Positions 103 through 7,369 of a stretch of 7,523 nt of DNA are shown piece by piece (position 1 is the first letter of the stretch; each line of letters opens with the position of its first letter). The notes under the pieces were generated by a model. The model had not been told where the DNA came from, did not search any database, and saw nothing but the letters and a program-made list of their open reading frames with translations. Origin of the DNA: an uncultured Gammaproteobacteria bacterium (GTDB lineage: Bacteria > Patescibacteriota > Microgenomatia > Daviesbacterales > UBA10151); contig CAZFVS010000053.1 of assembly GCA_964522265.1 (NCBI GenBank), forward strand, positions 1-7,523. The letters run 5' to 3'. The position numbers were made by a program, and so were the translations under genes.

Positions 103-175
103 GCCCCCATAGCTCAGTGGATAGAGCAAGACGGTTCTAACGTCGAGGTCGGGGGTTCGAATCCCTCTGGGGGTG
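103..175 (+). tRNA. tRNA-Arg, anticodon TCT
   Basis: 73-nt cloverleaf read by hand. Acceptor GCCCCCA/TGGGGGT (G1-U72 wobble); U8; D arm GCTC-AGTGGATA-GAGC with A20. Anticodon arm AGACG-GTTCTAA-CGTCG (27-43 A/G mismatch), with U33, anticodon TCT at 136-138 and A37. Variable loop AGGTC; T arm GGGGG-TTCGAAT-CCCTC; discriminator G175. CCA is not encoded (next bases are CTA). Confidence 0.85.
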
Positions 176-190
176 CTAGCACTATACTTT

Positions 191-317: not shown

Positions 318-1640
318 TTATATTTTAAACCTTCTGTCAGTTAAAAACGGATTTGGTTTTCTGAAGACATCCGGGGATGAGATCAGTGCTGCACGCTTGA
401 GGGTAAACTCACCAAATCTATCATTTATCCTGTCCAGAGCCTTGGTGATCTTTTCATTTTTATAACTTTCCATAAACAGGCTCAAATTGATCGGGTTTTC
501 CGGTTTTAAATTTGAAACTGACACTCCAATCATCCTGATTTTTTCACCATTCCATATTTTGAGAAAAGTCTGCCAGGATACTTGAAAAATCTCCAGCCCG
601 TTATTGGTATACGGAACCGTTGTCTGCATACCACCGCCTAAAAATTCACCCCGGGGGTGAAATGCGGACTGAAATGCCAAACGGTACCATAAACTGATTG
701 TTTTCCCCACCAGCTTTTTTGCCCGCAGCCTTCTTGCAATAAGCTCCGTCAACTTCAAAAGCACCTGTTTGATTTTGACAGAATCGGAGGTGTCAAGATC
801 CAGAGTATGTCTGTGCCCAATAGACTTGACCTCTCCTTTTTCATAAAAAGGTACAACAGGAGTGTTGTCAATTCCCCGGGCCATGTTGAAAAGAGTTTGT
901 CCATAACTTTTAAAAGAGGCAAGTAAATTTTCTAAAGGTATTCTTCTTAGCGTCTGAAAATTAAAAACTCCCATGTTTCCCAGCCTTTTTTTGATCCTTG
1001 AGCCGATTCCGCAAATTTCATCAAGCTCAACCGCATCTAAAACAATCTGTGCTGCCGCCTCATCAGCTATCACCACCAGTCCGTCGGGTTTGTACAAAGA
1101 TCCTGCCAGTTTTGCCATTAGCTTGTTATAAGAGATGCCGATAGAAACTGTAATCCACTCCCCGATCTCGGTTTTTATGCGAGATTTGATATTTTGGGCA
1201 GTTCGAATCAGCTCAGGTAATTCGGAACAACTCAAAATATCAGAGTTTCTGATAATCTGACTTTCTGGTATACAGAGTCTTTTTGGGTTACTCTGAGCTA
1301 TTTCCAAAAACACCTCATCTATAGAGAAAGCTTCAAGCTTGGGGGAATAATCCTTTAAAATATTTAAAAACCTTTTTGTGCACTCCAAATATTTATCGCT
1401 GTCACCTTTCACTAAAATTAAATCAGGGCATATTCTTAAAGCTTCAGGAATACTCATTCCTGTTTTTACACCCAACCTTTTTGCCTCAACAGAAGCTGCC
1501 CCCAAAACAGTTCTGTCCATTCTGTCCCCGCCTGTGACACCGATGGGCTTTTCCCGCAGCCTGGGGTTTGCCTGCTGTTCAACAGTGGCAAAGTAAGAGT
1601 TAAAATCAATGTGCAAAATGGTTCTCATATGCTCCGTCAT
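318..1640 (-). CDS. dinB: Y-family DNA polymerase IV (DinB-like translesion polymerase)
   Basis: 440-aa ORF. N-terminal ILHIDFNSYFATVEQ is the Y-family palm motif in its D-x-N form, as recalled for UmuC-type enzymes. FSIDEVFLE carries the catalytic Asp-Glu, and SIGISYNKLMAKLAGSLYKPDG is the conserved NK-LAK-AS-KP-G motif. Start is ambiguous: the ATG at 1640 lies inside the GIY-YIG repeat arm, while the ATG at 1628 (MRTILHID) is preceded by GGAG. Confidence 0.85.
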   Translation of the reverse strand: MTEHMRTILHIDFNSYFATVEQQANPRLREKPIGVTGGDRMDRTVLGAASVEAKRLGVKTGMSIPEALRICPDLILVKGDSDKYLECTKRFLNILKDYSPKLEAFSIDEVFLEIAQSNPKRLCIPESQIIRNSDILSCSELPELIRTAQNIKSRIKTEIGEWITVSIGISYNKLMAKLAGSLYKPDGLVVIADEAAAQIVLDAVELDEICGIGSRIKKRLGNMGVFNFQTLRRIPLENLLASFKSYGQTLFNMARGIDNTPVVPFYEKGEVKSIGHRHTLDLDTSDSVKIKQVLLKLTELIARRLRAKKLVGKTISLWYRLAFQSAFHPRGEFLGGGMQTTVPYTNNGLEIFQVSWQTFLKIWNGEKIRMIGVSVSNLKPENPINLSLFMESYKNEKITKALDRINDRFGEFTLKRAALISSPDVFRKPNPFLTDRRFKI

Positions 1641-1677
1641 TGCGAGATCCGATGTCCATCGGACCGAAGCAATCTCT
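1636..1677. repeat. Left inverted-repeat arm of the GIY-YIG module
   Basis: GTCATTGCGAG-ATCCGATGTCCATCGGAC-CGAAGCAATCTCT. Inner stem TCCGATG (1648-1654) pairs with CATCGGA (1657-1663), and outer ATTGC pairs with GCAAT. The arm overlaps the dinB ATG (1638-1640) and the GIY-YIG stop codon (1676-1678). Confidence 0.7.
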
Positions 1678-1966
1678 AAAAAATAATTTCTTCGTATAAA
1701 TCTTTGAATAGAGGGTTTTTATCCTTGATTAATTCAATTTTTTGGGCACGTGATCCACCCTTAAGCTGTTTTTCTCTTTTTATCGCTTCATTGATGTCCT
1801 CAAAAGCTTCATAGTAAACTAGCTTGTTGACTTTATATCTGGTTGTAAATGAGGAACCAATTCCTTCTTTGTGTTCGTAAACTCTTTTTACCAAATCGGC
1901 GGTTACTCCTGTATATAAAGTACTGCTATTGTTATTAGCCATGATGTAAATATAGGAATGTTGCAT
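1676..1966 (-). CDS. Small stand-alone GIY-YIG (URI-domain) nuclease family protein
   Basis: 96 aa. Motifs: YIYIM (GIY), LYTGVT (YIG), KRVYEHK (conserved Arg), YYEAFEDINEAIKREKQLKG (conserved Glu and REKQ-K), and the tail NPLFKDL. This pattern is typical of the short COG2827-like GIY-YIG proteins. Confidence 0.85.
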   Translation of the reverse strand: MQHSYIYIMANNNSSTLYTGVTADLVKRVYEHKEGIGSSFTTRYKVNKLVYYEAFEDINEAIKREKQLKGGSRAQKIELIKDKNPLFKDLYEEIIF

Positions 1967-2071: not shown

Positions 2072-2317
2072 TCAATCTGATTCTTCCACCGCTTCCAGAA
2101 ACCACTTCAGATTTTTAAGATTAAACATCAGCCGGTAAAAATTGCCTCCGCCTGAAACCGAGAAGTGGTAAATAGTCGATGAACCATCACCAGAGGTATG
2201 AACCAGATTAATTTTGTCCACTTTAATCCCGCGTTGTTTCCAGAAAAATAGGTATGGTTGTATCACAGCTCCTTTAAAGAAAACCCAGACATTGATAGGT
2301 TCAAGAAGTTCAAACAC
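2072..2317 (-). CDS. Hypothetical small protein (81 aa), probably beta-rich, co-oriented with the upstream peptidase-like genes
   Basis: Open frame with a GTG start at 2315-2317 and no in-frame ATG before the upstream stop at 2339-2341. GAAGAGG abuts the GTG. It begins 31 nt after the stop of ORF 2349..3134. Alternating hydrophobic runs (VWVFF, YLFFW, KINLVH, IYHFSVS, FYRLMF) suggest beta strands. I recognise no family, so coding status is not certain. Confidence 0.5.
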   Translation of the reverse strand: MFELLEPINVWVFFKGAVIQPYLFFWKQRGIKVDKINLVHTSGDGSSTIYHFSVSGGGNFYRLMFNLKNLKWFLEAVEESD

Positions 2318-2348
2318 CTCTTCATTATTATCCGAATATTACCCGAAG

Positions 2349-3134
2349 TCAAGAAACAATATTTTGATTGTTTAATTTGGATATTTTGTAAGTACGTTCT
2401 GGCAGAACTGTTTTGGATAGATGCTCAAGCGACATCCAAACAATACCGCAGTTTGAATCTATCGCCTGAACATTAAAATAACCTTCTTCAGTTATATAAT
2501 ATCCGCTGATACAAATTGCATGGGTTTCAGATTTAGTGGAGTCTGGGATTGAATAAAAAAGTTCAGCCTTTACATTAAGTATTAAAGGGTGTATTTGATC
2601 TATCAGGCTTTTTATCAACCGTGCATTCATTTTTAACAATACCCTATTTATTAATTCATACGCTGGGTCATATAAACACTGTATTGTCGCTGAGGGTGGT
2701 AAATTTTTCATATTTACCCCGGTTATTTTTGTGGTATCAGCTAAAATACTTAGCTTGAGTCCATTTTTATAAGCTAAGTTGAGTATCATTGCCACATAGC
2801 CTGGATCAAGTTCAATATCTGCTACGCTGCATGCATTAACCAGGGACCACGGAGCACAGGTAACTTCATTTCCTTGTCCATACCATCTGCCTGTATACAC
2901 CCTATCTGAAAGAGTCATCTCCACAACCGTTCTTTCATCTGACATTAAAGTCCCGCCAAAAAATTTTCTTGCATCTGACACCACAGAACCTGAGCAATGA
3001 GTTAAAACAGGATTAGCTAACAAACTTGCTGTTCTTTCCGGCCAATATGGTCCCTCTGGAAGTATTGGTACAAAAAGCGGAGTTATATTAAATTTGTCTT
3101 TGTTAAGATTGTTAGTTATTTCTAGCATAGCCAT
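2349..3134 (-). CDS. Papain-fold (clan CA-like) Cys-His-Asp/Asn enzyme, paralogue 1, cytoplasmic
   Basis: WYGQGNEVTCAPWSL has the Gln-x5-Cys spacing of papain (Gln19/Cys25). Later motifs are THAICISGY (His) and AIDSNCG (Asp/Asn). No signal peptide. The likely true start is the second ATG at 3128 (MLEITNN), because the promoter/start alignment with the paralogue stays in register at that codon. Confidence 0.7.
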   Translation of the reverse strand: MAMLEITNNLNKDKFNITPLFVPILPEGPYWPERTASLLANPVLTHCSGSVVSDARKFFGGTLMSDERTVVEMTLSDRVYTGRWYGQGNEVTCAPWSLVNACSVADIELDPGYVAMILNLAYKNGLKLSILADTTKITGVNMKNLPPSATIQCLYDPAYELINRVLLKMNARLIKSLIDQIHPLILNVKAELFYSIPDSTKSETHAICISGYYITEEGYFNVQAIDSNCGIVWMSLEHLSKTVLPERTYKISKLNNQNIVS

Positions 3135-3136
3135 TA

Positions 3137-3165
3137 ATTCTACTATAGGTTTAGAAAAAATGCAA
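3137..3165 (-). promoter_or_regulatory. Promoter of paralogue 1 (minus strand: TTGCAT, 17-nt spacer, TAGAAT)
   Basis: On the minus strand, TTGCAT (3160-3165), a 17-nt spacer and TAGAAT (3137-3142). The ATG at 3128 is 8 nt downstream of the -10, which implies a leaderless or near-leaderless mRNA. The ATG at 3134 is only 2 nt from the -10. Confidence 0.5.
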
Positions 3166-3185
3166 CAATCGTGTTAAAAGGCTCA

Positions 3186-3896
3186 TTAGATACAGCGTTT
3201 ATACAACACGAAGGTATTGTTGAATCGACGGGTTTTCAACAAATGTTCAAGGGATAACCAATAAATCCCGAAATTTGAATCTATCGCTTGGATATTAAAA
3301 AATCCCTCCTGAGTTATCTGATAACCGCTCAGACAAAGTGCATGATTTTTGTCCTTATAGTTATTAGGTTTAGGGTAATATTCACAAACTTGAACAGAGG
3401 TAATGAGAGGTAGACCCAAATCAAGGAAAAACCTGGCGAATAAACCAAAAGCTAGGTTTTGTTTGAAAATCCTGTTTAAACCTTTGGGCCGGTCTAAATA
3501 TACTTTTTGTGACATTATCTCAGAACCATTGACAGAATCCTGCAAACTGCTCAAATGAAATCCTATTTCTGAAGGATTTATAAACCCAGCAGCGCGGTTT
3601 ATTAAATTTGCGATGTAGACCGGGTCAGGTTCTACTTCCAAAACTGTGCAGGCATTTACCAGAGACCATGGTGCACAGGTAGGTTCCCCTTTTTGTCCAT
3701 ACCACCTACCTACATATTCTCTTCTACTAGGCTTCAGATTACATACCATCCTGTTTTCTGCGAGGGTTGTCTCTGTTAGGAAGCTTACCTCACAAGGTGT
3801 ATAATTTAAAACATCATTTGTCAGTTCCGGGTGAGCCAGTAACAGGGCAACAGTATTCGGGGTATAACCTAGGTCAATGATGTGATTTTCAACCAT
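3186..3896 (-). CDS. Papain-fold (clan CA-like) Cys-His-Asp/Asn enzyme, paralogue 2, cytoplasmic
   Basis: WYGQKGEPTCAPWSL, NHALCLSGY and AIDSNFG match paralogue 1. Identity is 26/40 in the Cys block and 28/38 in the His/Asp block, and much lower elsewhere. No signal peptide. Confidence 0.7.
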   Translation of the reverse strand: MVENHIIDLGYTPNTVALLLAHPELTNDVLNYTPCEVSFLTETTLAENRMVCNLKPSRREYVGRWYGQKGEPTCAPWSLVNACTVLEVEPDPVYIANLINRAAGFINPSEIGFHLSSLQDSVNGSEIMSQKVYLDRPKGLNRIFKQNLAFGLFARFFLDLGLPLITSVQVCEYYPKPNNYKDKNHALCLSGYQITQEGFFNIQAIDSNFGIYWLSLEHLLKTRRFNNTFVLYKRCI

Positions 3897-3904
3897 ACCC
3901 GTTA

Positions 3905-3933
3905 ATTCTACTATAGGTTTAGAAAAAATTCAA
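3905..3933 (-). promoter_or_regulatory. Promoter of paralogue 2 (minus strand: TTGAAT, 17-nt spacer, TAGAAT)
   Basis: On the minus strand, TTGAAT (3928-3933), a 17-nt spacer and TAGAAT (3905-3910), then 8 nt to the ATG at 3896. The block 3903-3950 is 44/48 identical to 3135-3182. Confidence 0.5.
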
Positions 3934-3942
3934 CAATCATGT

Positions 3943-3948
3943 TAGAAT
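3943..3948 (+). promoter_or_regulatory. Candidate -10 element (TAGAAT) for the divergent glycoside hydrolase gene
   Basis: TAGAAT lies 6 nt upstream of the ATG at 3955. No convincing -35 and no Shine-Dalgarno sequence. Confidence 0.3.
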
Positions 3949-3954
3949 GCAAAA

Positions 3955-5697
3955 ATGGGGTTCGGTATAAAGATATTGGGCTTTTTGGCTCTTCTGATCA
4001 TTTATCATTTATCATTTATCACAGTTTATGCTGTTTACGATCCAGTGTCCGTCCCCAATAATAAATTCGGCATCCATATCATTTCTGCAACTGATCATGA
4101 AGCCTCTCCTGCAGCTGCACTGGTCAATTCCTCCGGCGGGGATTGGGGTTATATTACAGTGCTGGCGGAAAGCAAAGACAGGGATGTTAATAAATGGCAG
4201 GCTTTTTTTAACGATTTACGCAGAAGGCACTTAATTCCAATTATTAGGCTTGCTACTCAACCTGAAAAAAGTTTCTGGAAAAGGCCTTATGAGGGAGAAG
4301 AAGAAGCCTGGGCCTCATTTTTGGACAATTTAACATGGCCCGTTAAAAACCGCTACGTTATAATCTACAACGAGCCAAACCAGGCCAAGGAATGGGGTAA
4401 CCAGGTGGATCCGGAAGGATATGCCAAAGTTTTAGATAAAACAATCACCGCTTTAAAGTCAAAAAGCAATGATTTTTTTGTCCTTAATGCCGGTTTTGAT
4501 GCCTCAGCCCCCTATAAACCTCCTGATTTTTTTGATGAAAGCCAGTTTTTGCAAAAAATGGAGGAAGCTGTACCTGGTATTTTTGAAAGACTGGATGGTT
4601 GGTCATCGCACTCTTACCCCAATCCGGGTTTTACAGGCTCACCAAACGGTTTCGGAAAGGGCTCGGTGAGAACATGGCAGTGGGAGCTTCAAAAACTTGC
4701 TGAACTGGGGGTAAAAAAGAAGCTGCCGGTTTTTATAACTGAAACGGGCTGGCAGCATGCAGAAGGACTGGTTTATGACAAGTCCCTTCCTTCTGCGGAA
4801 AATGTTGCCAATTTTTATAAGCAGGCCATGGGTAATGCCTGGAATAATAATACAGTTGTTGCAGTAACACCATTTTTATTAAACTACCAGGAAATCCCAT
4901 TCGACCACTTTTCTTTTAAGAAAATTACCGGTGAAAGACAATCCAAAAAGATTCTTGGAGTTGAATTTCCCGATTACTATCCTCAGTATACGAGAATTAA
5001 AGATTTGCCAAAAACTCAAGGTCTGCCGGTTCAGGAAAATAAGGCTGAGCTGGTAAAAGGTGAGATATATTCGTCCATAGTTTCCGACCAGTGGTATGAG
5101 ATTCCTTTAACTTTTAAAAACAGCGGCCAGTCAATTTGGAATGAATATGATCAGGTTAAACTTGTACCTGACGAAGAAGGTCTGAAGCTGGGGATACGGG
5201 AAGTTTTGCTGCCCGAAGATCAAAAAATTGAACCCGGGCAGGATTATTCATTTAAAGTCAATTTGAAAGCTCCACAATACGGATTTTTTAAGGTGAAGCT
5301 TATTCTTTACCGGAATGATATACCGTTTGATTCCAAACCTCTTGAGTTTACAACAGAGGTAAAACAGCCGGTTATCCTAAAAATACACTCCACCCTTGAC
5401 TGGAAAAAAAATTTTGAGGGGAGTTATATTTTAAAAACAGTCGGGGCATTAGGAAAAACGTTTAAAAATATTATTCTCTCTAAAGATGGCTTATCACCCG
5501 AAATGGAAGCAGCCTTCCTGATACCGGACTACACTTTTGATTTTACTTTGGAAAAGCCTTTCTATAAACCAAAAACAATCCGCCGGAAAGTTTTTTCCGG
5601 GGTCAATACATTGGATTTCGGTTCGCTTCAACCCGATATCCCCTCCGCCATCCTGCATCCTAAGCAACTTTGGAAACTGCTGCCATTTTCAAATTAG
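3955..5697 (+). CDS. Secreted or membrane-anchored clan GH-A-like (GH5/GH39-like) glycoside hydrolase with a C-terminal beta-rich extension
   Basis: 580 aa. The N-terminal hydrophobic segment ILGFLALLIIYHLSFITVYA is a signal peptide or signal anchor. IIYNEPN supplies the putative acid/base Glu140 and VFITETGW the putative nucleophile Glu263. That Asn-Glu-Pro ... Thr-Glu pattern on a (beta/alpha)8 fold is typical of clan GH-A. Residues from about 340 to 580 carry no catalytic motifs. Substrate unknown. Confidence 0.6.
   Translation: MGFGIKILGFLALLIIYHLSFITVYAVYDPVSVPNNKFGIHIISATDHEASPAAALVNSSGGDWGYITVLAESKDRDVNKWQAFFNDLRRRHLIPIIRLATQPEKSFWKRPYEGEEEAWASFLDNLTWPVKNRYVIIYNEPNQAKEWGNQVDPEGYAKVLDKTITALKSKSNDFFVLNAGFDASAPYKPPDFFDESQFLQKMEEAVPGIFERLDGWSSHSYPNPGFTGSPNGFGKGSVRTWQWELQKLAELGVKKKLPVFITETGWQHAEGLVYDKSLPSAENVANFYKQAMGNAWNNNTVVAVTPFLLNYQEIPFDHFSFKKITGERQSKKILGVEFPDYYPQYTRIKDLPKTQGLPVQENKAELVKGEIYSSIVSDQWYEIPLTFKNSGQSIWNEYDQVKLVPDEEGLKLGIREVLLPEDQKIEPGQDYSFKVNLKAPQYGFFKVKLILYRNDIPFDSKPLEFTTEVKQPVILKIHSTLDWKKNFEGSYILKTVGALGKTFKNIILSKDGLSPEMEAAFLIPDYTFDFTLEKPFYKPKTIRRKVFSGVNTLDFGSLQPDIPSAILHPKQLWKLLPFSN
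3997..4021 (+). repeat. Heptanucleotide tandem repeat (ATCATTT x3 plus ATCA) inside the signal-peptide coding region
   Basis: ATCATTT at 3997-4003, 4004-4010 and 4011-4017, then ATCA at 4018-4021. The segment encodes LIIYHLSFI. Confidence 0.8.
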
Positions 5698-5725
5698 CCA
5701 CTTTGAGAGTAAAATAATAGTGCTT

Positions 5726-6364
5726 ATGGCATTTTTAACAAAAGAGGAGATTATCAGGTCTCTGCCTCTTTTCAGAAACCTGCCCCAAAATGCAGTTAAA
5801 ATTATTGCAGAGACTGTTCAGGAAATGAAGCTATCCGAAAAAAGGGTTTTTATAGAACAGGGTAATAACAGCGATGAGATATTTTTTATTACAAAAGGCA
5901 GTGTCAGGGTTTACAGGTTAACTGAGGAGGGTGAGGAAGTTACTTTGGCAATCTGCGGACCTGGAGAAATTTTGGGTGAGATGGCATTTTTGGATGAACA
6001 ACCACGCTCTGCAAGTGTAGAAACTATGCAACCTACCGATGCGTTTGTTTTAAACAGGATAAGTTTCAAACAGATTCTACTCAACCATCCTGATATTGCC
6101 CTATCCCTTCTTAAGGTTTTATCCGCAAGGCTTCGCAAAACAGGAGAACAGATGGAGGATTTATTTTCAAAAAACCTTGAGGAAAGAACTTGGAAAGCCT
6201 TAAAAACCCTGTCAGGTTATTTTCCTGAAAATGAAATTACTCTCTCCCACGAGGAGCTGGCGGAGATTATCGGTGCAACCAGGGCCAGGGTTACGGAAGT
6301 ACTGGATCAGTTGTCATCATCAGGTAAGATCAGCCTCTCCCATCGCAAAATCCACATCAATTAA
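5726..6364 (+). CDS. Crp/Fnr-family transcription regulator (cNMP-binding domain plus C-terminal HTH)
   Basis: 212 aa from the ATG at 5726 (MAFLTKEEI). The longer ORF from 5537 overlaps the preceding gene and is discounted. LPLFRNLP, GEMAFLDEQPRSASV (the Gly-Glu ... Arg-Ser phosphate-binding cassette) and the HTH SHEELAEIIGATRARVTEVLDQL are present. Confidence 0.85.
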   Translation: MAFLTKEEIIRSLPLFRNLPQNAVKIIAETVQEMKLSEKRVFIEQGNNSDEIFFITKGSVRVYRLTEEGEEVTLAICGPGEILGEMAFLDEQPRSASVETMQPTDAFVLNRISFKQILLNHPDIALSLLKVLSARLRKTGEQMEDLFSKNLEERTWKALKTLSGYFPENEITLSHEELAEIIGATRARVTEVLDQLSSSGKISLSHRKIHIN

Positions 6365-6396
6365 TTGCTGCAGCAGCGGATTAGTTGAGTCGAACT

Positions 6397-6412
6397 TGTT
6401 CCCCAAAGAACA
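6397..6412. promoter_or_regulatory. Candidate Crp/Fnr-type operator TGTTC-N6-GAACA
   Basis: Perfect 5-bp inverted repeat with a 6-bp spacer: TGTTC 6397-6401, CCCAAA, GAACA 6408-6412. The geometry and the outer TGT...ACA match the CRP consensus TGTGA-N6-TCACA. The centre lies 41.5 bp upstream of 6446. Confidence 0.4.
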
Positions 6413-6433
6413 GAATTCAACTTACATTTATCC

Positions 6434-6439
6434 TACTAT
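6434..6439 (+). promoter_or_regulatory. Candidate -10 element (TACTAT) for the HD-domain gene
   Basis: TACTAT lies 6 nt upstream of the ATG at 6446. There is no good -35 hexamer (the Crp-type site sits there instead) and no Shine-Dalgarno sequence. Confidence 0.35.
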
Positions 6440-6445
6440 CAATTC

Positions 6446-7369
6446 ATGGATAGAGAAAAAATTCTTGAAATTAACCACTATGAGGATATTTATGGAGAGG
6501 ATTATGAAATCGTAGCCTCCCACCTGAAAGGTGTACTCCTAAAACTCTGCGGATTAATTGAAAACCCGCAAATTCCTAAAACCGAACTTGTTGCAACCAT
6601 CCTTCAGTATTTTGATTTTGCAACAGCCCTGTTTTCTAAAGAGGCAATAAGCAGGATTTTGGGGGGAAGATATGCCAATTTGTATTACCACAACAAACAC
6701 CATGCAGTTTACCAGGCAGGATTTGACGGGGTACAGGTTGCAAGAGGGATTATGACGAGAAATGATTTCTTGTCAAAAAATTTAACCTTAGAAGGGGTAC
6801 TTGCGATAGTTTTAGGTGCAATTTACCATGACACAGGTTATGTAACAGCCCAGGACCATCCTAAAAATTATGCTGCATTAACTCCGGTGCATGTTGAAGC
6901 AAGTAAGAAGACTTTCCAAAAAGCTGTTGAATTTTTAGGATTGCCTGAGGGAATTGATAAGGGAAAGGTCATAAGGCTGGGGACAGTAGGGATCCATAAT
7001 ACTTATTTTCCTTTTACTGAAGAAAGAAAAATGGAAAGGCAAAAGCTTCTGGAAAATTTTAAAACGCCTGAGGAAAAAAAGGAGGCAATGATTGTAGCTT
7101 TATCAGTTCAACTGGCTGATTTAGGGGGTCAGGTTGCCAGGGTAGACTACTTCCCTGCCCTGCTAAAAAATTTAAGGGAGGAGATGGAGGCGGCAAACCC
7201 CGGTTCAGGGATGCAGATTATCGGGCAGGATTATGAACTGGCAAAAAAATGCCGGGGCTTTTTGGATTTTGTAGTAAGACCTACTGTTGGTAAAACTGCC
7301 AATGCCTTTTTGGGCAAGAACAATACTTTTACACAAGCTTTTGAAAGAAATTCCTCTTTTGGCATTTAA
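6446..7369 (+). CDS. HD-superfamily metal-dependent phosphohydrolase (phosphodiesterase-like motif pattern)
   Basis: 307 aa. YYHNKHHA (His-x3-His), AIYHDTGY (His-Asp, 42 residues later) and QLADLGG (Asp, 96 residues after the HD). This H...HD...D layout defines the HD superfamily. YHN-x-x-HA and ADL(S/G) also resemble class I cyclic-nucleotide PDE motifs, but the HD-x-x-H second His is absent. Confidence 0.65.
   Translation: MDREKILEINHYEDIYGEDYEIVASHLKGVLLKLCGLIENPQIPKTELVATILQYFDFATALFSKEAISRILGGRYANLYYHNKHHAVYQAGFDGVQVARGIMTRNDFLSKNLTLEGVLAIVLGAIYHDTGYVTAQDHPKNYAALTPVHVEASKKTFQKAVEFLGLPEGIDKGKVIRLGTVGIHNTYFPFTEERKMERQKLLENFKTPEEKKEAMIVALSVQLADLGGQVARVDYFPALLKNLREEMEAANPGSGMQIIGQDYELAKKCRGFLDFVVRPTVGKTANAFLGKNNTFTQAFERNSSFGI

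Follow-up and report, generated by a model that had tools for sequence, protein, structure and literature searches.

Two tandem papain-fold peptidase paralogues beside a small gene and its DinB-type polymerase in a Daviesbacteria-type genome

INTRODUCTION

Why should a bacterium keep two genes for papain-like peptidases side by side, directly upstream of a gene for a protein of only 81 amino acids (aa)? The question is raised by a 7,523-nt stretch of DNA (positions 1 to 7,523 of contig CAZFVS010000053.1, GenBank assembly GCA_964522265.1) from an organism filed as an uncultured Gammaproteobacteria bacterium and placed by GTDB in the Daviesbacterales. We call this whole stretch the window, and give all coordinates in it unless another locus is named. 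A run of five genes occupies its minus strand: the peptidase paralogues, here termed pepA and pepB, the 81-aa gene ('the small gene'), a GIY-YIG nuclease gene and a Y-family DNA polymerase gene. In the staphopain/staphostatin (C47) and SpeB/Spi (C10) pairs, too, a small gene comes next after a papain-fold peptidase gene and shares its strand, and a preliminary description of the window proposed that the 81-aa protein was likewise a cytoplasmic inhibitor, or else a substrate, of the peptidases.

We have come to a different view. The reading that we favor, with a probability of about 0.8, is that pepA and pepB are old tandem paralogues of a rare papain-fold family, and that they were inserted beside an unrelated unit composed of the 81-aa gene and its DinB-type polymerase gene. 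Related contigs compared with the window bear locus labels (L001, L005 and so on), of which L001, a Candidatus Daviesbacteria metagenome-assembled genome (MAG; GCA_016186955), is the one most often referred to.

A FAMILY OF PAPAIN-FOLD PEPTIDASES

The two genes are plainly paralogues. The products of pepA (3186..3896, minus strand; 236 aa) and pepB (2349..3134, minus strand; 261 aa, or probably 259 aa from an ATG at 3128) are 39% identical over 233 residues (E 4e-49), and identical at 26/40 and 28/38 positions in the two catalytic blocks. In both, a Gln lies six residues ahead of a Cys (Gln-x5-Cys), and Asn and Asp occupy positions +16 and +21 relative to a His. The first of these motifs falls within WYGQKGEPTCAPWSL in pepA, the His within HALCLSGY and the Asp within IDSNFG. 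The small open reading frame (ORF) begins 31 nt past the pepB stop codon. The three ORFs, their motifs, the block identities and this gap had all been described beforehand, and all were reproduced.

Relatives of these proteins are not found easily. A word-index homologue search was insensitive, returning three matches for pepB, with only two relatives among them, and, for pepA, the query alone. An exhaustive HMMER profile search of 1.84 billion representatives recovered 137 cluster representatives (clusters at 50% identity), 108 of them at E < 1e-10. The pepA protein, a predicted clan-CA cysteine hydrolase like its partner, matches the family's hidden Markov model (HMM) with an E of 7.6e-63 and retains every family-invariant residue. 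When 96 members are aligned, using pepB numbering, Gln87 is present in 94, Cys93 in 95, His205 in 94 and Asp226 in 95; Gly211, Tyr212 and Gly230 are nearly invariant, too. The +16 position, Asn221, is variable, being Asp in 53 members and Asn in 26. The papain-like order of Gln, Cys, His and Asp, first suggested from pepA and pepB by themselves, is borne out in the family at large.

Which family is this? None with a name, as the preliminary description had surmised. The nearest in Pfam, Peptidase_C39_2 (PF13529), aligns at its positions 6-134 of 143 with residues 85-216 of pepB (E 0.0084; 17.1 bits, where the gathering score is 24 bits), and nothing in pepA matches it at E <= 1. Of the 96 aligned members, 19 match this model at E < 0.01 (best E 7.6e-6), all under the gathering score, and none matches any other peptidase family. 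That includes Peptidase_C1 (PF00112), which matches neither paralogue nor any of the 96 members. Searches of NCBIfam, PADLOC and PHROGs returned nothing for pepA, pepB or the 81-aa protein, and a direct search of Protein Data Bank (PDB) sequences returned nothing for pepA or pepB. A profile search of the PDB sequences aligned the HAICISGY block with the catalytic-His block of dionain-1, a member of the papain family, at E 0.04, and with a C39-like domain at E 0.32; the local likeness to dionain-1 is the sole link to family C1. A literature search on papain-like proteases in Patescibacteria found nothing. The pair is best viewed as adding a new member, at family level, to a familiar kind, the clan-CA cysteine peptidases, current understanding of which is unchanged by these results.

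Structure prediction leads to the same place. An AlphaFold (AF2) model of pepB built from the 96-sequence alignment has a predicted local distance difference test score (pLDDT) of 88.8 and a predicted template modeling score (pTM) of 0.86; it supersedes a model from a 4-sequence alignment that was unusable (pLDDT 39). Cys93 opens a helix (93-104), His205 opens a strand (204-214), and Asp226 ends the neighboring antiparallel strand (219-226), an arrangement that reproduces, as modeled, the topology of papain but with a lengthened hairpin. Papain Asn175 would correspond to Asp226 rather than Asn221, because in the model's DSSP string it is Asp226 that closes the strand adjoining the His strand, and because Asp226 is the conserved one of the two.

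Foldseek comparisons of this model with the PDB return clan-CA enzymes only, with probabilities near 1 but template modeling (TM) scores of only 0.3-0.4: Lpg2622, PeiR, procathepsin K, staphopains, CtaG, cathepsins, ZUFSP and the C39 domains of PCAT1. Against a viral library, the best match is an AvrRpt2-like protein, and mycobacteriophage Lysin A and endolysins, including that of a Gordonia phage, match as well. The predicted papain fold is secure, with no close relative among solved structures, and the earlier expectation of such a fold holds up, distant though the matches are. The features by which clan CA is recognized are all here, namely the Cys-helix/His-strand/Asp-strand layout, the oxyanion Gln and the likeness to solved clan-CA enzymes.

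Comparison with the C39 peptidases brings out what is particular to the family. Peptidase_C39_2 enzymes, the sole ones matched by sequence, have the same Gln-x5-Cys…His…Asp order. Unlike them, the proteins of the present family carry a conserved extension of ~80 residues before the Gln and a helical insert, of ~70 residues, that separates the Cys helix from the His strand, and they have neither a signal peptide nor a fused wall-binding or transporter domain. The bacteriocin-processing C39 domains of PCAT/AMS ATP-binding cassette (ABC) transporters (6mpz, 8vp5, 7n87) share the papain-like core, the oxyanion Gln and the Cys/His/Asp triad, at Foldseek probabilities of 0.99-1.0 but query-normalized TM scores of only 0.34-0.39. 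Those domains belong to transporters, whereas pepA and pepB stand alone, and the adjacency typical of C39 peptidases is lacking: neither the window nor L001 nor the related loci contain a gene for an ABC transporter or a double-glycine precursor.

Members of the family are single-domain proteins of about 240-300 aa, and the longer ones contain no recognizable extra or informative fused domains. The first 22 residues of pepB are disordered in the model and variable; residues 31-80, in contrast, form a conserved and confidently modeled extension specific to the family. By hydropathy scan, neither pepA nor pepB nor nearly any of the 137 relatives has a signal-peptide-like or transmembrane segment, in keeping with the preliminary description of the paralogues as signal-less. 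The maximum Kyte-Doolittle score over 15 residues, a crude test, is 1.15-1.23 within the first 60 residues of the pair. Two giant surface proteins, weak matches to the family, are the clear exceptions. The pepA and pepB proteins are probably cytoplasmic.

If the enzymes are catalytically competent hydrolases, as their conserved residues suggest, the likely division of labor can be sketched. Cys93, at the N-terminus of its helix, would be the nucleophile, and His205, at the start of its strand, the general base, oriented by Asp226 at the end of the neighboring antiparallel strand. Gln87, six residues ahead of the nucleophile, would contribute to the oxyanion hole, and a peptide, isopeptide or amide bond would be hydrolyzed by way of a thioester intermediate. 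With its confident model and its clear catalytic tetrad, the family should lend itself readily to biochemistry.

THE SMALL GENE AND ITS POLYMERASE

The case for a peptidase-inhibitor trio is easily made from the window. The small gene (2072..2317, minus strand) lies 31 nt past pepB on the same strand, with no terminator-like site between the two, and L001 has the genes in identical order. To judge from its homologues, the small ORF, which begins with GTG, is a real and strongly conserved gene. Its product is 85% identical to the L001 copy and has >239 homologues at 58-85% identity, essentially all of them from Daviesbacteria-type sequences.

It is the company that these homologues keep that decides the matter. 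In four other Daviesbacteria genomes (4/4), the small gene sits directly upstream of a Y-family polymerase gene and divergent from a GH5-like gene, and the peptidase is absent. The conserved two-gene unit of an 80-81-aa protein and its polymerase was traced through 318-2352 of the window and loci L001, L005-L008 and L028-L107. We extended the comparison to 80 metagenome loci, 63 with enough downstream sequence to be informative and 59 with enough upstream sequence. A same-strand polymerase gene follows the small gene within 600 nt at 59/63 loci, and within 1.7 kb at 61/63. A member of the peptidase family adjoins it at 0/59. In the window the polymerase gene is at 318..1640, minus strand; it is of the DinB type, with Pfam domains IMS, IMS_C and IMS_HHH_1 and the catalytic SIDE motif. 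Since the small gene keeps to the polymerase, and keeps a promoter-like element of its own where there is no peptidase (see below), we conclude that it belongs to the polymerase and that the peptidase pair was inserted beside a unit already in place, in the space between this unit and the conserved, exported GH5-like gene upstream.

The other comparisons run the same way. The small gene has its >239 homologues, but close relatives of the peptidases are a mere handful, and between the window and L001 the small protein is 85% identical but the peptidase only 56%. Locus L108 has both a small-gene unit and a very divergent member of the peptidase family, but these are 3.7 kb apart and on opposite strands; other members of the family have no such small gene nearby. 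Staphostatin and Spi genes co-occur with their proteases, whereas the small gene co-occurs with a DNA polymerase, and staphopain and SpeB are secreted zymogens, whereas pepA and pepB have no secretion signal. Staphopains do appear among the Foldseek matches of pepB, at ranks 8 and 17. The idea of a cognate inhibitor or substrate fails on this evidence: in relatives the small gene is not syntenic with the peptidases, an outcome that had been named beforehand as one that would count against it. An attractive but wrong operon model is thus removed, and the 81-aa gene is reassigned to the Y-family polymerase.

What might the small protein be? Stand-alone ImuB-C proteins are beta-rich, have a conserved C-terminal Trp together with basic residues, and are encoded most often in DinB operons (Aravind et al. 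2013, PMC3765255; Timinskas and Venclovas 2019, PMC6511836). The small gene, in a putative operon immediately upstream of an active-type Y-family polymerase gene, has the setting of the imuB-C-polY/dinB operons. Its protein family has an invariant C-terminal Trp72 in KWFLEAV and an invariant Arg29, with Lys32 in at least 90% of members. By eye, the motifs P-x-x-F-x-W-K/R-x-R, Y-F/H-F-x-V…G and W-F-L occur in the same order as in ImuB-C. There are differences, too: the likeness has no statistical support, the protein is 81 aa long against a model of 103 positions, and no lexA or dnaE2 gene lies nearby.

Profile comparisons hover below significance. The Pfam model DUF6504 scores 24.1 bits against the last 73 residues of a genuine ImuB, one encoded in an imuA-imuB-dnaE2 cassette. 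It matches 16/44 members of the small-protein family at E 0.004-0.2, the best at 17.3 bits and all under the 24.2-bit cut-off, and it does not match the window's own 81-aa protein. The ImuB genes for these comparisons were reached via dnaE2; a tblastn search of plasmids with DinB yielded no ImuB, the best plasmid matches being annotated as dinB. Aligned by hhalign with ImuB C-termini, the small-protein family gave E values of 0.022 and 0.41, the latter, from seven C-termini, not being significant. A literature search on DUF6504 and PF20114 found nothing. On balance we lean, with some reserve, toward a stand-alone ImuB-C-like (DUF6504-like) accessory protein, which would extend the theme of 'small beta-rich accessory protein plus DinB' to the Daviesbacteria.

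HISTORY OF THE PAIR

The proteins that flank the peptidases in the window are 74-91% identical to those of L001, and in the same order, from which it follows that the window belongs to a related genome of the Daviesbacteria (CPR, Microgenomates). L001 has a single peptidase gene, P0002, at the same genomic position; its product is 56% identical to pepB and is, by sequence and place, the pepB orthologue. In contrast, pepA is about equally distant from all of its relatives, with 38-42% identity to pepB, P0002 and P0003. The split between pepA and pepB is therefore older than the divergence of the window genome and L001. Both copies have remained intact since then, with every invariant residue in place, which argues for two maintained genes. 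The earlier suggestion of two maintained functions agrees with this, and the alternative, that one copy is a decaying duplicate, is rejected.

The peptidase evolves faster than its neighbors. Between pepB and P0002, the nonsynonymous divergence (dN) is 0.355, versus 0.05-0.18 for five flanking genes, and the ratio of nonsynonymous to synonymous divergence (omega) is about 0.35, at a synonymous divergence (dS) that is near saturation. Between pepA and pepB, dS is saturated and the ratio is uninformative.

PROMOTER-LIKE ELEMENTS

Each of the paralogues is preceded by a copy of the same element. That of pepA (3897..3950, minus strand) has the form TTGAAT-17-TAGAAT, running from 3933 to 3905; it scores 9/12 in a consensus scan, is conserved in L001, and overlaps the start of the divergent 580-aa gene. 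The pepB copy (3135..3182, minus strand) has the form TTGCAT-17-TAGAAT, and its weaker -35 hexamer leaves it out of the scan matches. The two are part of a direct repeat of 64 nt (D2; 3887-3950 versus 3119-3182) that is 88% identical and spans each start codon and ~50 nt upstream. In a 53-nt core, the copies agree at 48/53 positions, and the sequence upstream of P0002 agrees with them at 41-43/53. The two copies within the genome thus resemble one another more than either resembles the P0002 copy, whereas in the coding regions the relation runs the other way. The discrepancy might come from gene conversion or from a regulator common to both.

In all three copies, those of pepA, pepB and P0002, the ATG comes 8 nt past the -10 hexamer, a spacing that suggests leaderless mRNAs for pepA and pepB. 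The register of the alignment also makes the second ATG of pepB, at 3128, probably its true start, a correction to the annotated one. Each gene would then be transcribed from its own element as a leaderless message. As nothing resembling a terminator separates pepA from pepB, transcripts begun at the pepA promoter might also run on into pepB. The claim that the paralogues are 'separately promoted' is thus plausible, and gains from the duplicated, L001-conserved element at each gene.

The element of the small gene (2324..2352, minus strand; TTGACT-17-AATAAT) scores 10/12 and overlaps the pepB stop codon. As TTGACTTCGGGTAATATTCGGGTTATAAT, it is conserved in 6/6 aligned loci, four of which have no peptidase gene. 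A direct repeat, TTCGG(G/A)T(A/T)AT, occurs twice between its hexamers and could be an operator. The pepA and pepB elements have a repeat of a different kind, the inverted sequence TTCTA-N9-TAGAA overlapping the -10 hexamer. In these three genes, the start codon follows a -10-like hexamer by only 6-9 nt and is not preceded by a Shine-Dalgarno sequence, a pattern that suggests leaderless mRNAs may be common in this organism.

WEIGHING THE READING

Several points weigh against the picture of old paralogues inserted beside an unrelated unit, or limit how far it can be carried. Neither pepA nor pepB is above threshold in any Pfam, NCBIfam, PADLOC or PHROGs family. The geometry of the catalytic triad is read from the secondary-structure positions of the pepB model alone. 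The structural matches are distant (TM 0.38-0.45) and substrate specificity is therefore not transferable from them. The absence of a signal peptide is judged by a hydropathy scan, and the enzymes may leave the cell by a non-classical route. The promoter and leaderless assignments, finally, are predictions drawn from a sigma-70-type consensus and from conservation.

WHERE THE FAMILY OCCURS

The family is rare, and found mainly in bacteria of the candidate phyla radiation (CPR; Patescibacteria). A degenerate DNA pattern was scanned against 185,579 species genomes and found in 18 stretches, 8 of which were confirmed by HMM. The confirmed hosts are Daviesbacteria, Gottesmanbacteria, Woesebacteria, Roizmanbacteria, Saccharibacteria, an unclassified bacterium and two MAGs labeled Gammaproteobacteria. 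The same pattern matched no viral contig. What emerges is a newly defined, small family of signal-less papain-fold proteins, largely confined to the CPR bacteria, whose proteomes abound in unknowns.

No neighboring gene is conserved across about 14 independent contexts of the family. Roughly six of the 14 adjoin genes for envelope or division functions: FemAB and GT4 (L012), a PMT_2/GT2 cluster (L109), a Mur ligase (L110), the interval between ftsA and ftsZ (L021), and the exported GH5-like gene in two arrangements. The L021 member, P0141 (288 aa; L021 5560-7981), has an unusual insertion site in lying between ftsA and ftsZ; its MAG is labeled Gammaproteobacteria. The Roizmanbacteria copy (L013 77-660) is split into two ORFs of 87 and 105 aa. 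It has probably become a pseudogene, which fits an accessory gene that is dispensable.

WHAT MIGHT THE PEPTIDASES DO?

Our leading guess, and it is a tentative one, is a narrower form of the reading given at the outset: that pepA and pepB act on the cell wall or on other short peptide or amide substrates. Their substrates might be cytoplasmic ones, either precursors of peptidoglycan or muropeptides undergoing recycling, or the enzymes might be signal-less autolysins released in the fashion of endolysins; we hold these variants just as tentatively. The cytoplasmic NlpC/P60 enzyme YkfC of Bacillus subtilis is a functional parallel for a muropeptide role. The nearest family, Peptidase_C39_2, is known from the literature as a catalytic domain of phage endolysins, and the structural neighbors of pepB include the pseudomurein endoisopeptidase PeiR along with mycobacteriophage Lysin A and the Gordonia phage endolysin. 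That likeness spans the whole clan, however, rather than lysins specifically, and no cell-wall-binding domain, holin or phage context was found. The ~6/14 contexts with envelope or division neighbors are a raw count and a weak lead, as such genes are abundant in small CPR genomes anyway and the eight other contexts are unrelated.

Less probable again, and in our opinion unlikely, is that the proteins are fast-evolving effectors or toxins, exported non-classically by an episymbiotic CPR bacterium and directed at its host or competitors. Patchy distribution, different insertion loci and duplication would suit such a role, as would the variable, disordered N-termini, the high dN of pepB relative to its flanking genes, and the toxin-antitoxin or transposase genes present in some contexts. 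The AvrRpt2-like protein that is the best viral structural match is itself an effector-type protease. But an omega of about 0.35 does not indicate positive selection, and there is no adjoining secretion-system or immunity gene, no PADLOC match and no conserved partner gene.

Equally unlikely, in our estimation, is that these papain-fold proteins make amide bonds rather than hydrolyze them, as transferases or ligases with chemistry like that of CtaG, BtrH or NAT. CtaG, an amide-bond-forming enzyme, is among the top Foldseek matches (ranks 9-10), and a cytoplasmic location fits biosynthetic chemistry. The CtaG match is no better, though, than those of ordinary peptidases (TM 0.37-0.38), and none of the contexts examined has a biosynthetic cluster or carrier-protein gene.

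Fainter still is the prospect that the ImuB-C-like/DinB damage-response unit has taken on the peptidases to serve it as a proteolytic switch. The idea has precedents by analogy, as peptidase genes beside operons of stand-alone ImuB-C and DinB are a described theme that includes SRAP thiol peptidases and DUF955 metallopeptidases (PMC3765255). In the window and L001 the peptidase genes are co-directional with the unit, 31-46 nt from it and with no terminator between, and the third, very divergent member in L108 lies within 4 kb of one. The absence of the family from all 59 other informative loci tells against recruitment, as do the promoter that the small gene keeps for itself and the roughly 11 other family members that are nowhere near a polymerase gene. 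A broader version, in which the family is a CPR-specific conflict or stress module and no housekeeping peptidase, the Daviesbacteria pair were recruited beside the unit and the paralogues are co-regulated through homogenized elements, strikes us as equally faint. If it were true, LexA/UmuD, SRAP and DUF955 would be joined by the pair as a fourth structural class among the peptidases of the damage response. The inhibitor trio with which we began comes last, and on the synteny given above it can be set aside as very improbable.

NEIGHBORING GENES

Between the small gene and the polymerase gene, the window has a GIY-YIG nuclease gene (1676..1966, minus strand; 96 aa; Pfam GIY-YIG, E 4.6e-18). It occupies this place in this genome only, being absent there in L001, L005 and L008, and looks like a mobile insertion. 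GIY-YIG genes are present elsewhere in the L001, L005 and L008 loci. Just past the polymerase gene is a tRNA-Arg(TCT) gene (103..176, plus strand), the window's sole Rfam match.

Diverging from pepA is the GH5-like gene (3955..5697, plus strand; 580 aa). Its product has an N-terminal hydrophobic segment, weak similarity to Cellulase (GH5; E 5e-4) and likewise weak similarity of the DUF4832 type. This gene is the conserved divergent neighbor of the small-gene/DinB unit at 33/59 loci, and the peptidase family adjoins it in three genomes in two arrangements, one in the window and L001 and the other in L108.

Farther along the plus strand (5537-7369; L001 2551-4179), a gene for a Crp-family cNMP-binding regulator is followed by one whose 307-aa product shows weak likeness to PDEase_I/HD (E 0.0024). 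L001 has both, at 84-91% identity, and the two might form a pair for cyclic-nucleotide signaling. Synonymous divergence between the window and L001 is uneven from gene to gene, with dS of 0.31-0.43 for the Crp and HD-like genes and from 1.3 to saturated for the DinB, GH5-like and small genes, which suggests a recombination mosaic across the region. In L006 (124-2771), the GH5-like gene is bordered by genes for a serine recombinase and Phage_rep_O, and the neighborhood of tRNA-Arg(TCT) and the GH5-like gene may be an integration hot spot.

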